A stretch of DNA of 64,000 bases, taken from NCBI GenBank assembly GCA_963704645.1, contig OY969926.1, forward strand, positions 928,001-992,000, given 5' to 3'. Both the position numbers and the translations under genes were made by a program. Origin of the DNA: an uncultured bacterium. Its GTDB lineage: Bacteria; Patescibacteriota; JACMRA01. The notes under the pieces were generated by a model that made no database searches, had not been told where the DNA came from, and worked only from the letters and a program-made list of their open reading frames with translations. Below are positions 14,071-39,366 of this stretch, piece by piece. Each line of letters begins with the position of its first letter. The stretch's first letter is position 1.

Positions 14071-14256
14071 TATTTTACTGGCTTAAATAGAAGACCTATG
14101 AATGTTGAAAAATAGGCATTCATTAGTTTAGACCCTGATACAAGGGTGACAGCCTCGATTGCTGAGCTTTGTAGTGTAATATTCTTAGTATTGTGTTTCG
14201 TATGCTATCTCCCTCATTTGCCTAAAACAAATTAAAAATAGAAGATTAAAATAAAT

Positions 14257-15477
14257 ATGTTAAAGGCTTTAATTTTTGACTCTTACTTTGATAAACACAG
14301 GGGCGTAATTGCTTTTATTAGGCTATTTAATGGAACACTAAAGCCAGGAGATACAATTTATTTTTTACAAACCAGTACCAAGGTAAATGTATTGGAAGTT
14401 GGAATTTTCAAGCCAGATTTACAACCAATAGACGTTTTAAGTAGTGGTGAAGTTGGTTATGTGGTAACCGGTTTAAAAGAGCTGGAAAAAGTAAAAGTTG
14501 GTGACACCATAACCCACACAGATAACTTAAGCTTGGCATTACACGGTTATAAAGAAGTTGAGCCAAAGGTTTATTCTAGTATTTTTCCTACAGATGCTTC
14601 AGACTATCCTAAATTACGCGAAGCAATTGCTAAATTAAAACTAAGTGACGCTTCTTTGCAATATCAAACTGAAAACATTCCAGCCCTTGGCTTTGGCTTT
14701 AGATGTGGCTTTCTAGGCCTTTTACACATGGATATTGTACAAGAAAGACTTAGTCGGGAATTTGATTTGGATCTTGTTTTAACCACTCCGTCTGTTCAAT
14801 ACCAAATAGAGGAATTTAACGGAGAAACTTATACAATACACACACCTTCCTTGCTTCCAGACCCAAGTAAAATTAAAAATATTTACGAACCGTGGATTAA
14901 AATTGAAATTATTACCCCAGATATTTACATTGGTAAAATTATTGAATTAATTACTGGTAAACGTGGCAGTTACAGCTCTATTTCGCCATTAGCCCAAGAT
15001 CAAGTACAAATTACTGGCGAATTACCCCTGGCAGAAATGATTGTAGATTTTTACGATGAATTGAAATCATCCACCAAAGGTTTTGCCACTATGTCTTACG
15101 AAATTATTGGCTTTAAGGAAGGCGATTTAGTAAAAATTGATATTTTAGTAAACAAGAAAGTTGTTGATCCACTTTCGGTAATGACTCACCGTGCACAATC
15201 TGAAGAAAAAGGTAGAGAAATTTGTGAGAAATTAAAAGAGCTTATTCCTAGGCAGCAATTCGATATTGCCATTCAAGCTTCAATTGGAGCCAGAGTTATT
15301 GCCAGAGAAAGCATTAAACCATTCAGGAAAGATGTTACGGCCAAGCTGTACGGAGGTGACCCTAGTCGAAGAATGAAGCTTTTGGATAAACAAAAAGCAG
15401 GAAAAAAGAAGATGAAAATGGTAGGAAACGTAGAAATTCCTCAGTCTGCCTTCTTAAATGTTTTGAAAAAGAGTTAG
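14257..15477 (+). CDS. lepA: Elongation factor 4 (LepA), domains II to CTD only; G domain absent
   Basis: Begins LKALIFDSYFD (start of domain II); GFRCGFLGLLHMDIVQERL; RKDVTAKLYGGD...KQKAGKKKMK. In-frame stops lie directly upstream. Confidence 0.92.
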   Translation: MLKALIFDSYFDKHRGVIAFIRLFNGTLKPGDTIYFLQTSTKVNVLEVGIFKPDLQPIDVLSSGEVGYVVTGLKELEKVKVGDTITHTDNLSLALHGYKEVEPKVYSSIFPTDASDYPKLREAIAKLKLSDASLQYQTENIPALGFGFRCGFLGLLHMDIVQERLSREFDLDLVLTTPSVQYQIEEFNGETYTIHTPSLLPDPSKIKNIYEPWIKIEIITPDIYIGKIIELITGKRGSYSSISPLAQDQVQITGELPLAEMIVDFYDELKSSTKGFATMSYEIIGFKEGDLVKIDILVNKKVVDPLSVMTHRAQSEEKGREICEKLKELIPRQQFDIAIQASIGARVIARESIKPFRKDVTAKLYGGDPSRRMKLLDKQKAGKKKMKMVGNVEIPQSAFLNVLKKS

Positions 15478-32396: not shown

Positions 32397-32558
32397 AAGT
32401 ATATGAGTTTAAGAACAAGATGAAGTCTTAGCATTGATGTAAACCTATTTCATAACATTAACCGAGCTTAAATACTCAAAATAAGCTCAAAATTGTACAA
32501 GAAATCTACTACATTTTTTAAGATTGACTTTTTATTAAGTCTAGAATTAGCTTATAAC

Positions 32559-33572
32559 ATGAGCATAAACTATGTTGATTACCGATCTTTTTTAATGGCC
32601 AATGTTGATACAATATTACAAACTGCCTCTAGCTTAAGACAGGTTTCTTCTATAGAAAGTGAAGATTTATTTGGAGCGGAAAGCAACGATGCAGGAGCTC
32701 AAATTAAATGGCAAGAAGATGTTAAAAATCTATCCATTTTTGAAGTTTTGTTGAAGGAAAAAGATAGCCTTGGCTTGTTTGTTTCTGGTAACCCGCTTAA
32801 TGAATATTTTCCTATTCAAGAATGGGCCAGAGAAACAGCTGGAAGAGACGATATTTTTTTAGTTCTGGTTACTAAAGTTCGCAAAATTTTTACTAAAGCC
32901 GGTCAAATGATGTTAACTTTGCAAATAACTTTAAACACAGGCGAAATTGAAGGAGTTATTTTCCCTAAAAGAGCTATGGATTTATCACCAAAACTGGTGG
33001 AGGCGGAAATGTTTTGGGTTCGGGGTAAAATTAGCATGCCTAAAAAGAGAGAAACAAAACCAGAAGTTGTTGTTACTGCACCCGAAGAAGTAGAACAAAC
33101 TGATAGCGATAATACTGATAATACAGACGAGGTTATGCCAACAGAAACGGTTGTAGATATAGTAAAAGAGTACGACGAATTACCGAAACTTTTAATTGAT
33201 AATTTGGCTATTTTTGAAGAAGGTCCGCTGTCAGTTTTGCTGAATGAAGATATAAGAGTATCTGTTAATAGAGAAAAGGCTTTAAAATCAAAGAATTGGG
33301 CTGAATTAAAACAAAATCCTGACAGTTTATTTTCCACAGAAGAAGTTAAGCAAATTCCCGCTGAAAAAGAATTGACTAGCCCTAACACTATTAAAGTTAT
33401 TAAAATTACCAAGCAAATGGGAGCTGAGGTTTTAACCCAAATAAAGAAGAACTTGAAAACCGAAGCTGGGCCAAATTTAACTGAAGTAGAATTGTGGGTA
33501 GAAAATCAAGGTGAATTGAAAAAGGTAAAAGGAAATTTCTGGCTACCAAAAACTGAAGCCGACAAGTTTTAA
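32559..33572 (+). CDS. dnaE: DNA polymerase III alpha C-terminal fragment (clamp-binding region plus OB fold), stand-alone
   Basis: EDLFG; LLKEKDSLGLFVSGNPL; VRKIFTKAGQMM...GEIEGVIFPK...VRGKI. No PHP or palm domain. TTGACT-18-TAGCTT-5-ATG. Confidence 0.85.
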   Translation: MSINYVDYRSFLMANVDTILQTASSLRQVSSIESEDLFGAESNDAGAQIKWQEDVKNLSIFEVLLKEKDSLGLFVSGNPLNEYFPIQEWARETAGRDDIFLVLVTKVRKIFTKAGQMMLTLQITLNTGEIEGVIFPKRAMDLSPKLVEAEMFWVRGKISMPKKRETKPEVVVTAPEEVEQTDSDNTDNTDEVMPTETVVDIVKEYDELPKLLIDNLAIFEEGPLSVLLNEDIRVSVNREKALKSKNWAELKQNPDSLFSTEEVKQIPAEKELTSPNTIKVIKITKQMGAEVLTQIKKNLKTEAGPNLTEVELWVENQGELKKVKGNFWLPKTEADKF

Positions 33573-36732: not shown

Positions 36733-39195
36733 TTAAATCAACTTCTTGGTTCTTGCACGATAGGTTTTAAAGCCAATAAAGCCTAGTACCAAACTGCCTA
36801 AAATACCAAAAATACTCATTGGGTCAAGTCCTCCAGTTCTAGGTAAAACTGTAGCATTTAGAGCTGTAACATTAACAGTCTCTCCAGTAGGAGTAACAGC
36901 CTCACTTCCAATTTGACCATTAATACCTTGAGTTCCTGTTTGACTTCCTGTAGGTACAGATGTACAAGTCACAAGATTATTTGCTCCTACAGTACAAGTA
37001 CCTGATGGGGCGGCATCTCCAATACCAAGTTTGAAGTTATTTGGAAGAGATTTATCTGCAGGAAGAGTAAAGGTACAAGTTGTTGTAGAGTTTACAAGCA
37101 CACTATTACCTCCATTACAAACTACAGTAAGACCTGGAATGTCGGTTGTAACAAGTGGTGGGAAAAATAAAGTTACATCACCCTTATCTACAGGAGTACC
37201 TCCAGTACCTACAGTTAGTAAAGTATCTCTAAGTCCTGCACTTCCCCCAGTTGTAGGAATACCAGCACAAACTAAAGCTACAGCCGCAGTTCCATTTCCA
37301 CTAATTGTACAAGCTGGAGATTGGCCAGTAGCTGTACTTGTAGCTGCAGTAATACCGCCTGTTGGTAAAGCATAGTTATTGCCAGCGTCTCCTGTTAGAG
37401 GATAGTTACAAGTATAAGTATTTCCAATAGCTACAGTTAAAGCTGAAGTACAGTTTGATGAATTTCCAATGTTGGTTGCAGTTATGGTTGTAGGGGCTAC
37501 TACATTTACAGTTTCACCTGTAGGAGTTACTGGGTTAGAACCAATTTGTCCGTTAATAGGTTGTGTTCCTGTTTGGCTTCCTGTTGGTACAGATGTACAA
37601 GTTACAAGATTGTTTGCTCCTACAGCACAAGTTCCAGCTGGTGTTGCATTACCTATACCTAGTTTGAAGTCTGATGGAAGAGATTTATCTGCAGGAAGAG
37701 TGAAGGTACATGTTGTTGTAGAGTTTACAAGCACTGTTCCTGGTGTTCCACCTACTCCACATGTTACTGTTAGACCTGGGATGTTTGCTGTTGTTAAGGG
37801 AGTAAGAGCTAAAGTTACATCACCCTTATCTACAGGAGTACCTCCAGTACCTACAGTTAGTAAAGTATCTCTAAGTCCTGCACTTCCCCCAGTTGTAGGA
37901 ATACCAGCACAAACTAAAGCTGCAGCAGCAGTTCCATTTCCACTAATTGTACAAGCTGGAGATTGACCAGTAGCTGTACTTGTAGCTGCTGTAATACCAC
38001 CTGTTGGTAAAGCGTAGTTATTACCAGCATCTCCTGTTAGAGGATAGTTACAGGAATAAGTATTTCCAATAGCTACAGTTAAAGCTGAAGTACAGTTTGA
38101 TGAGTTTCCAATGTTGGTTGCAGTTATGGTTGTAGGGGCAAATACTGAAATTGGTGTAGTTCCTCCCAAGTTGGTTGTAGCTGCTTTAGTTCCTGTGGTT
38201 GTTCCTACTGGTACTGAAGAAGCTGTGAATGTTCCGTCTGGGTTTATTGCTGTTGTTATACTTCCTCCTCCATTGTCTATTGTTACTGTTATGTTTCCAG
38301 CATATGGAACTCCTGCTGGTGCTCCTGTTGCTTGGCCTGAACAGTTTACTGTGCCTGAGGCTACCACGCTAGAAGGTGTGCAGGTTAGACCTGTGATTTG
38401 ACCTTGTTCTGGAGTATAGGAAGTTGGGGTTACTGGAGTGTTAAAAGCTGGGGTTGCGTCTTGAGTATATGTAGGGCCGAAAGTTGGGGTTGCTGTGGCG
38501 GCGTATGAGAAAGTAGAACTTACGCCAATAGCAACAAAATAATAACATCCTCCACCTCCACAACCTGCAGTATAACCACATGAAGATCCTTGATCATATC
38601 CAACTGTTAAACCAGGAACAGGACAAGATGCAGCCTCATAAACTGGACCAGAGTTGTTTGGCGGAACGAAACACAGTCTAAAACCGTTTACAAAAACTTG
38701 AGAAGGTTGCTGATATGTTGTAGATGTAGAACTAAAAGCAGGGCAAGGAGCTGCAGGGTCAATTACAACCAATGATTGAGAAACAACACCCTGACAAGTT
38801 GTACCGTTTAGCACGCCACCTCTAGGAACAGACCCTGACCCTAAATCTGGACAACTGTAACTAGTACCAGTTTGACTTGTAACAAAACACTGAGCACCAT
38901 TGCCTCCAAGGCTTTGACCGGCAGGACAAGTATAAGAAGAAGGAGTATTAGATATACAAGTATTTCCACTTACAGTAGAACCAGCAGGACAATTTAAAGC
39001 AGCTAATGCTGTATCAGTATTTTGTAATAAAGAGAAAGTGAATAATCCTGAAATTAATAATACAGAAAGTGTTAATAAAGAGAATAAAGAATATTGTCCT
39101 TTTTTAGATTTTAAAAATTTATTTAAACTAAATTTATTTCCAAATTTAGAATTGTTACTATTACTGTCACTACTTGAAGATGATTTTTGATTCAT
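36733..39195 (-). CDS. Cys/Thr/Gly-rich modular surface protein with N-terminal TM and C-terminal LPRTG-TM-basic tail
   Basis: 642-bp internal repeat; VLPRTGG...FKTYRARTKKLI. TTGCCC-17-TATAAT at 39246-39218 suggests a start at 39195 (or 39213). Confidence 0.85.
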   Translation of the reverse strand: MNQKSSSSSDSNSNNSKFGNKFSLNKFLKSKKGQYSLFSLLTLSVLLISGLFTFSLLQNTDTALAALNCPAGSTVSGNTCISNTPSSYTCPAGQSLGGNGAQCFVTSQTGTSYSCPDLGSGSVPRGGVLNGTTCQGVVSQSLVVIDPAAPCPAFSSTSTTYQQPSQVFVNGFRLCFVPPNNSGPVYEAASCPVPGLTVGYDQGSSCGYTAGCGGGGCYYFVAIGVSSTFSYAATATPTFGPTYTQDATPAFNTPVTPTSYTPEQGQITGLTCTPSSVVASGTVNCSGQATGAPAGVPYAGNITVTIDNGGGSITTAINPDGTFTASSVPVGTTTGTKAATTNLGGTTPISVFAPTTITATNIGNSSNCTSALTVAIGNTYSCNYPLTGDAGNNYALPTGGITAATSTATGQSPACTISGNGTAAAALVCAGIPTTGGSAGLRDTLLTVGTGGTPVDKGDVTLALTPLTTANIPGLTVTCGVGGTPGTVLVNSTTTCTFTLPADKSLPSDFKLGIGNATPAGTCAVGANNLVTCTSVPTGSQTGTQPINGQIGSNPVTPTGETVNVVAPTTITATNIGNSSNCTSALTVAIGNTYTCNYPLTGDAGNNYALPTGGITAATSTATGQSPACTISGNGTAAVALVCAGIPTTGGSAGLRDTLLTVGTGGTPVDKGDVTLFFPPLVTTDIPGLTVVCNGGNSVLVNSTTTCTFTLPADKSLPNNFKLGIGDAAPSGTCTVGANNLVTCTSVPTGSQTGTQGINGQIGSEAVTPTGETVNVTALNATVLPRTGGLDPMSIFGILGSLVLGFIGFKTYRARTKKLI

Positions 39196-39366
39196 ATTTA
39201 TTTTTGTTTTCATTAGAATTATACTCCAGGTTTTTGTTTTGGGCAAAAGGGATTAAAAAATTTTTAGATAAAGGAATTAAGGTAAGTTTAAGCAAACTAA
39301 AACCTATATTTAATAGAGTAAAAAAATCCAACTAAATTGTAGGGGCTATGTGTGAGTACACCTACC

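Follow-up and report, generated by a model that had tools for sequence, protein, structure and literature searches.

The 64,000-nucleotide window analysed here (assembly GCA_963704645.1, contig OY969926.1, positions 928,001 to 992,000 of the forward strand, from an uncultured member of the Patescibacteriota, JACMRA01) carries a gene for just the last quarter of DnaE, the DNA polymerase III (Pol III) alpha subunit, which is the textbook single-chain bacterial replicase. The locus raises the question of where the remainder of the enzyme is encoded, whether the arrangement is inherited, and how two such parts could act as one polymerase. An earlier note, made from the letters of the window, had described a DnaE frame limited to the C-terminal region and suggested an intein-free split. 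The study of the whole genome, a single contig of 1,272,640 bases (C1 below), and of its relatives points to a Pol III alpha which in this lineage consists of two separately encoded polypeptides that reassemble without covalent joining. We give this reading a probability of about 0.75.

Two genes for one polymerase subunit

The DnaE model TIGR00594, run across the whole contig, finds two matches only, which abut in the model (positions 7-886 and 885-1022) and lie 775 kb apart. The first belongs to an N-terminal gene outside the window (Table 1); its match (C1:182299-185121, 797 bits) is over the cut-off, and its product contains the Pfam domains PHP, DNA_pol3_alpha, DNA_pol3_finger and HHH_6. 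The earlier note had proposed to see whether such a gene ends after the helix-hairpin-helix (HhH) motif. It does so, four residues past HHH_6 (858-945 of 949), with the C-terminal end ...SGALDSLGAKKLRT followed by TAG. This piece keeps its catalytic PDIDGDF motif and D615 invariant, and the three catalytic aspartates D458, D460 and D615 are unchanged in 21 sequences. All features of a C-family DnaE replicase are present, with the catalytic core on the N piece and the clamp motif, OB fold and C-terminal domain on the C piece; no single polypeptide holds them all. The genome has one dnaN and a DnaX of 610 amino acids.

The C piece consists of two helices, a clamp-type DLF motif, an OB fold, an acidic linker and a C-terminal domain. 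Its assignment to the end of DnaE, as first proposed, is borne out by NCBIfam DnaE models that align at about positions 885-1146: PRK05673 (887-1141 of 1146, E-value 8.7e-15), PRK06920 (874-1034) and TIGR00594 (885-1022 of 1022). The motifs recognised in the earlier note were all recovered, namely DLFG (residues 36-39), EKDSLGLFVSGNPL, the OB fold and a structured tail. The stop-to-stop frame in the list of open reading frames spans 32493-33572 (+). The stop at 33572 stands as given before, and the start was moved: the ATG at 32559 is likelier than position 32524, preferred earlier, or the TTG at 32493, because the orthologues open only shortly ahead of the conserved R9/L12 helix, by a few residues, and because a stop lies three codons upstream in the closest relative. 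A leaderless-type promoter had been proposed for the gene; promoter-like sites in the region do not exceed chance (8 vs. 7.2 ± 2.7 in shuffled sequences).

An AlphaFold2 (AF2) model of the C piece, built on 20 family sequences, has a mean predicted local distance difference test score (pLDDT) of 73.8. Mapped to Protein Data Bank (PDB) structures, the C piece aligns with residues 950-1096 of Taq alpha and 894-976 of E. coli alpha, and its residues 1-35 correspond to about residues 890-917 of E. coli alpha and 950-975 of Taq alpha; R9, L12 and L20 are conserved at 90% or more in the 20-sequence alignment. The SEDLF motif aligns at the clamp-motif position of both reference enzymes, with F38 invariant and D36 at least 90% conserved. 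Further downstream L64, E67, L71, G72, S76, G77, P79 and L80 are invariant. The sole Pfam match of the piece is PF01336 (residues 126-195, E-value 1.8e-4, under the curated cut-off). The best Foldseek matches of the model are Taq Pol III alpha (4iqj_B, E-value 3e-4) and DnaE1 from M. tuberculosis (7pu7_A); OB-fold proteins (RPA/SSB OB domains) come next. The alignment of PRK05673 up to position 1141 covers the C-terminal domain, and the motifs KEYDELPKL and KKVKGxFW are conserved in the C-piece alignment.

The position of the break can be fixed closely. N-piece residue 945 aligns with Taq alpha residue 950 and E. coli alpha residue 894, and C-piece profile positions 10-11 align with the same residues; therefore, nothing is missing and nothing is duplicated. 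On the E. coli enzyme the break lies at about residue 890, some 30 residues before the clamp site at 920-924. Fused relatives have a linker of about 27 residues between LDxLG and the helix YVxxRSFL, which the five outgroup DnaEs do not have. The break is inside this order-specific insertion between the HhH and the next helix, to whose first part several N tails remain similar (GxKVxEKL...). Solved truncations of E. coli alpha end at residues 910, 917, 918 and 927. The laboratory constructs (1-910, 1-917 and 1-927 in 2HNH, 2HQA and 5M1S, and 917-1160) thus have nearly the same boundary as the natural break, but they are man-made, their reassembly was not demonstrated, and the natural break is about 30 residues earlier, which places the HhH-packing helix pair on the C piece. 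According to the excerpt of one such study, both fragments of E. coli alpha, 1-917 and 917-1160, fold and are stable by themselves, and the clamp site (920-924), the OB fold and the tau site are all in the part past 917 (PMC3384344).

A genetic-code artefact was considered as the origin of the broken frame and rejected: about 6000 codons of rpoB, rpoC, secA, gyrA and dnaE are free of in-frame stops, and the dnaE pieces end in TAG and TAA. As a separate observation, TGA ends only 18 of the 662 stop-to-stop frames of at least 200 amino acids in this genome. This suggests a stop codon that is seldom used, not a sense codon, though depositors label some relatives Gracilibacteria or SR1.

Inheritance and origin of the split

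The order is represented in the collection by 27 genomes: that of the window (G000), 25 others of the same family, and G025 from a sister family. The earlier note had held that its suggestion would fail if a full-length dnaE existed and the fragment was not conserved in relatives. No full-length dnaE is seen in the window's genome, and the C gene is kept in 24 of the 25 other family genomes, where it forms stand-alone frames of 315-393 amino acids, save two cut by contig ends. In G025 the match lies inside a fused frame of 1404 amino acids. Among 15 genomes from other families of the phylum, 13 gave weak matches within frames of 1142-1270 amino acids and 2 gave none. The N piece was matched in all 27 genomes of the order. 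Its tail ends 0-18 residues past LDxLG in 25 of 25 cases examined, and all 20 complete N genes end in TAA or TAG (the partial or interrupted loci L028, L032, L033 and L040-L044 were left out of this count). The two genes are on different contigs in 24 of 24 relatives, and a C match is absent from every N locus except the fused one.

Searches of protein collections give the same picture. In a collection of 5.8 billion proteins 57 stand-alone C clusters of 268-408 amino acids were found at an E-value of 1e-30 or lower, some of them on contigs of up to 355 kb. Among 1.84 billion representatives the same threshold is passed by 81 sequences, of which 80 have at most 404 amino acids and one (P0098, 1323 amino acids) is fused. 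A contig scan of the genome collection with the single C protein gave no match; with the C-piece alignment as the query it gave 20 loci. The depositors' labels on these loci conflict, naming the Patescibacteria group, Peregrinibacteria, Gracilibacteria, SR1, Saccharibacteria and Paceibacterota, and also Bdellovibrionales and Limisphaerales. The assignment to the phylum follows such labels, which for the relatives are mostly Patescibacteria/CPR, and the genome size. As to independent fissions at the same site elsewhere, matches of about 300 amino acids (E-value about 1e-15) mostly have no start methionine or start inside the HhH, and were taken as partial gene calls.

Both pieces are maintained by selection. 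Between the window's genome and its congener G001 the proportion of synonymous differences (pS) is 0.71-0.72, i.e., saturated, vs. a proportion of nonsynonymous differences (pN) of 0.12 for the N piece and 0.26 for the C piece. Since pN is far below the saturated pS, both are under purifying selection, the C piece less strictly. The C gene does not have the marks of a pseudogene, as its frame is open in 24 of 25 relatives and 25 alignment columns are invariant in 20 sequences. A quick maximum-likelihood tree of the N part (28 rows: 21 split genes, 2 fused genes and 5 outgroups beyond) unites the 21 split genes in one group, with a support of 99 in the Shimodaira-Hasegawa-like approximate likelihood ratio test (SH-aLRT), sister to the 2 fused genes (100). 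To judge from the sequences, the tree is compatible with a single fission.

The gene for the C-terminal piece of LepA probably marks the ancestral locus. It lies 136 nucleotides upstream of the fused dnaE in G025, 9-12 nucleotides upstream of the dnaE C piece in G002 and G019, and 15-17 kb upstream, on the same strand, in G000 and G001. Therefore, the C piece seems to have remained in its ancestral place, from which the 2.8-kb N part departed. The gene would have been broken a single time, in the ancestor shared by one family of uncultured bacteria with small genomes, and the N part may have been removed or relocated either by duplication with complementary deletions or by excision and reinsertion.

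A few irregular dnaE genes were seen in the order. In G005 a TAA cuts the PHP region of the N piece (L032, contig C5) into frames of 223 and 755 amino acids. G012, which has 4% contamination, contains two N-piece copies on different contigs (L038 and L042), and both G012 and G014 (L039) have insertions near N-piece residues 330-375. The fused gene of G025 (L045, 109-4317, minus strand) encodes 1402 amino acids, about 158 of them past the region aligned with the C piece, where no Pfam domain was reported.

Proposed reassembly of the pieces, rival explanations and known systems

The complex was modelled from N-piece residues 560-949 and the whole C piece, each with its own alignment, in three runs with three controls. 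The interaction prediction score from aligned errors (ipSAE) is 0.68 in all three runs vs. 0.00 for the best of the three controls; of 157 solved complexes 116 attain the mark adopted for this score, as do 2 of 215 mismatched pairs. At least 64% of contacts are common to the runs, with a partner pLDDT of at least 69. The predicted interface joins N-piece residues 844-948, the HhH region, to C-piece residues 3-30 and 47-76, and it includes the conserved residues K927, L933, G937 and D940 of the former and R9, L12, L20, L64, E67, L71 and G72 of the latter. The first 76 or so residues of the C piece would complete the HhH/beta-binding domain of the N piece by fragment complementation. The result would be a two-subunit alpha in which the core is responsible for catalysis and the small subunit supplies the clamp motif together with the OB fold and a C-terminal domain of the tau-binding type, and the assembled complex would bind the clamp, single-stranded DNA (ssDNA) and the clamp loader like an ordinary alpha. 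The model suggests that the pieces are shaped to complete one domain; binding itself does not follow from it.

The earlier note had left two routes side by side, non-covalent reassembly and joining by an unknown device. The former gains support from the modelling, and for the latter no device was found. A Pfam scan of both pieces detects no Hint or intein domain, in agreement with the lack of an intein-C signature noted before, and only the initiator methionine is conserved ahead of R9. The C-piece starts have no conserved nucleophile at a fixed +1 position, with 3-30 variable residues preceding the conserved helix, and the N tails, variable in length and sequence, share no terminal residue. 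An Rfam search at both broken ends in the window's genome detects no intron-like RNA; its sole match is a chance-level SmY (E-value 0.48). Covalent joining by an unrecognised route, be it non-canonical protein trans-splicing or RNA trans-splicing, has its only precedent in the cyanobacterial dnaE halves with their split intein, and all these negative results stand against it, so that we regard it as very improbable. That the fragment is a relic in decay, or that a normal dnaE was misassembled or misannotated, would accord with surveys of C-family polymerases, which in the parts covered here treat fragmented dnaE as sequencing errors or drop the fragments (PMC3919608, PMC12926913). However, two genes with their own starts and TAA or TAG stops recur in 24 independently assembled genomes, the short form prevails by 80 to 1 in the search of 1.84 billion proteins, the protein is conserved despite saturated synonymous sites, and no other C-family polymerase was found in the genome. 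This explanation is scarcely tenable.

Several points weigh against a reassembled alpha. The genome is a single, possibly unclosed contig, and this query found no C piece in the family genome G003, which is 84% complete. A search for RNA runs that contain the locus returned none. The complex score may come from contacts within one chain that the model had learned from solved structures of full-length DnaE. Neither broken end has gained a conserved extension, zipper or clasp, the N tails and C heads being variable. The two genes are not in a common operon, and their neighbours are not conserved in the family as a whole: those of the C gene are common only within the genus, with the upstream gene shared by at most 4 of 19 loci, and a neighbour of the N gene is shared by at most 5 of 31 loci. 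Finally, the rate of evolution of the C piece is about double that of the N piece. The missing clasp, the unlinked genes and the faster evolution of the C piece also speak for a looser two-subunit replicase, in which the C piece is an independent adaptor for clamp, ssDNA and tau that meets the core only on the clamp, the clamp loader or DNA, or in which the N piece works alone. The C-terminal domain of alpha is mobile in solved structures. An abstract that speaks of dynamic interactions (PMC4703070) and the stability of E. coli alpha 1-917 and 917-1160 on their own (PMC3384344, in excerpt) point the same way. On the other hand, the break lies about 30 residues before the clamp motif, which leaves the HhH-packing helices, strongly conserved, on the C piece; the complex model puts these helices on the HhH region with high confidence; and the variable N tail has no recognisable clamp motif, so the N piece would have no tether. 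We therefore consider the looser arrangement unlikely and favour an alpha reassembled from its two pieces.

The split can be compared with several known systems. The Nanoarchaeota (Nanoarchaeum equitans and relatives) are, like the present bacteria, small-genome and probably host-dependent organisms with several dispersed split essential genes, alaS among them. Unlike the bacterial order studied here they are archaea without dnaE, and the polymerase that is split in them belongs to family B and has its parts joined by a split intein. An abstract on the group mentions 'multiple split genes' (PMC3655853). The 'fractured genes' of environmental DNA also include replication genes of the dnaE type broken in two and are described, in the excerpt of that report, as having a split intein and a free-standing homing endonuclease gene between the halves (PMC2677866). 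Such genes need intein halves and an endonuclease in the gap, whereas the present genes have neither and lie far apart on the contig. In cyanobacteria, as here, the replicative Pol III alpha comes from two dispersed genes inherited across the lineage; the cyanobacterial genes carry an intein half at each broken end, whereas here neither end does, and the site of the break differs. An NCBIfam model of 449 positions, PRK07373, which we take to be the cyanobacterial DnaE C-half, aligns by positions 224-362 with residues 70-202 of the C piece; therefore, the C piece here starts about 150-200 residues further into the protein. In the Synechocystis/Nostoc type the two halves are spliced into one chain by the split intein, as an excerpt of one survey states (PMC3919608). 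Full-text literature searches returned no published intein-free chromosomal split of dnaE in bacteria. Two surveys of C-family polymerases, in the parts covered, mention no intein-free split and rebuild or drop fragments (PMC3919608, PMC12926913).

Other split genes and what the fission means

The earlier note had also proposed recurrent fission of core genes, naming lepA, and this idea holds up: lepA, alaS and polA are split in the window's genome as well. The survey genes were hand-picked, so the ratio of split to whole genes gives no rate; rpoB, rpoC, secA, gyrA and dnaX are whole. The lepA gene (elongation factor 4, EF4) is divided into a G-domain gene (C1:1158074-1158712, minus strand) and, 215 kb away in the window, a gene for the rest of the protein. 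Each of the 25 other order genomes examined, that of the sister family among them, shares the split, and G007, G010, G012 and G021 have lepA in three pieces, with the third break near model position 385. The 15 genomes of other families have 13 full-length lepA frames, one cut by a contig end and one without a match. Three pieces make up the alaS gene, of which one lies 565 kb away from the other two. With that of the window counted, 24 of 26 genomes of the order have a separate alaS N piece, the exceptions being an unsplit frame of 647 amino acids in G006 and a frame of 980 amino acids with a long in-frame insertion in G012; all 15 genomes from other families have a single alaS. From this distribution, the fissions of lepA and alaS predate that of dnaE. 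The polA gene is represented by a 5'-3' nuclease gene (C1:373316-374266, 325-amino-acid frame) and, 165 kb away, a polymerase gene (538690-540024, 612-amino-acid frame); for model positions 293-475, the 3'-5' exonuclease part, no match was reported in this genome. The insertion in the alaS of G012 measures about 2.1 kb, lies between model positions 126 and 140, and could be an intein.

Table 1. Positions of the dnaE pieces, their parts and other split genes (window numbering, or contig numbering where C1 is given).
Feature	Position	Strand	Description
dnaE N-fragment gene	C1:182281-185130 (outside the window)		949 amino acids; PHP, palm, thumb, fingers, HhH
dnaE C-fragment gene	32559..33572	+	337 amino acids + TAA stop (33570-33572); Pol III alpha clamp motif, OB fold and C-terminal domain
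Promoter-like hexamers TTAAGA-18-TAGAAT	32518..32547	+	9/12 consensus matches; ends 11 nucleotides before the ATG; unverified
Two N-terminal helices, residues 1-35	32559..32663	+	AF2 helices 5-14 and 16-35; predicted to dock on the HhH region of the N piece
SEDLF internal clamp-binding-type motif, residues 34-38	32658..32672	+	In disordered loop 36-59; pLDDT <60 around the motif
Two helices, residues 60-94, including EKDSLGLFVSGNPL (67-80)	32736..32840	+	Second half of the predicted interface with the N piece (interface residues 63-76)
OB fold, residues 99-159	32853..33035	+	AF2 beta-barrel, pLDDT ~90; Pfam PF01336
Acidic, poorly conserved linker, residues 164-205	33048..33173	+	Predicted disordered, pLDDT <50; length varies in the alignment
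C-terminal alpha/beta domain, residues 206-337	33174..33569	+	Homologous to the extreme C-terminal DnaE domain (tau-binding region in E. coli); pLDDT 80-93
lepA C-terminal piece	14254..15471	+	Model 188-594; syntenic anchor for the dnaE locus
alaS pieces (three)	C1:1109308-1110186; 545110-545568; 542441-543079		Model 2-245; 237-372; 379-431 + 552-694

The C gene is flanked by an ABC-ATPase-like gene and an unknown gene. Elsewhere in the window (36733-39246, minus strand) an 837-amino-acid, secreted-looking protein is encoded, with a signal- or anchor-like N-terminus, long internally repeated blocks rich in Thr, Gly and Ala, and, at the C-terminus, an LPxTG-like sorting signal made of LPRTGG and a hydrophobic tail after it.

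The case described here is an inherited, intein-free, dispersed split of a bacterial chromosomal replicase, with a break point that matches the laboratory's. The only published natural dnaE split found in the literature is repaired by an intein. The split marks a naturally permissive break point beside the one chosen by structural biologists, and the family offers a system for asking what the C-terminal module does in processivity and polymerase exchange. Surveys that drop dnaE 'fragments' will misjudge such lineages. Taken with those of lepA, alaS and polA, the dnaE split suggests that gene fission is tolerated throughout this lineage of small-genome bacteria, and the tolerance can be dated on the tree. 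More tentatively, it is possible that the order is a counterpart of the Nanoarchaeota, with a heritable and progressive fragmentation of essential information-processing genes (dnaE in 2 pieces, lepA in 2-3, alaS in 2-3, polA in 2) and with the clamp/ssDNA/tau module as a free, separately dosed subunit. If this is true, the loading and release of the polymerase core at the fork would be governed by a reversible protein-protein contact rather than a tether, and these bacteria would provide a natural experiment on how much the architecture of Pol III alpha needs covalent continuity.

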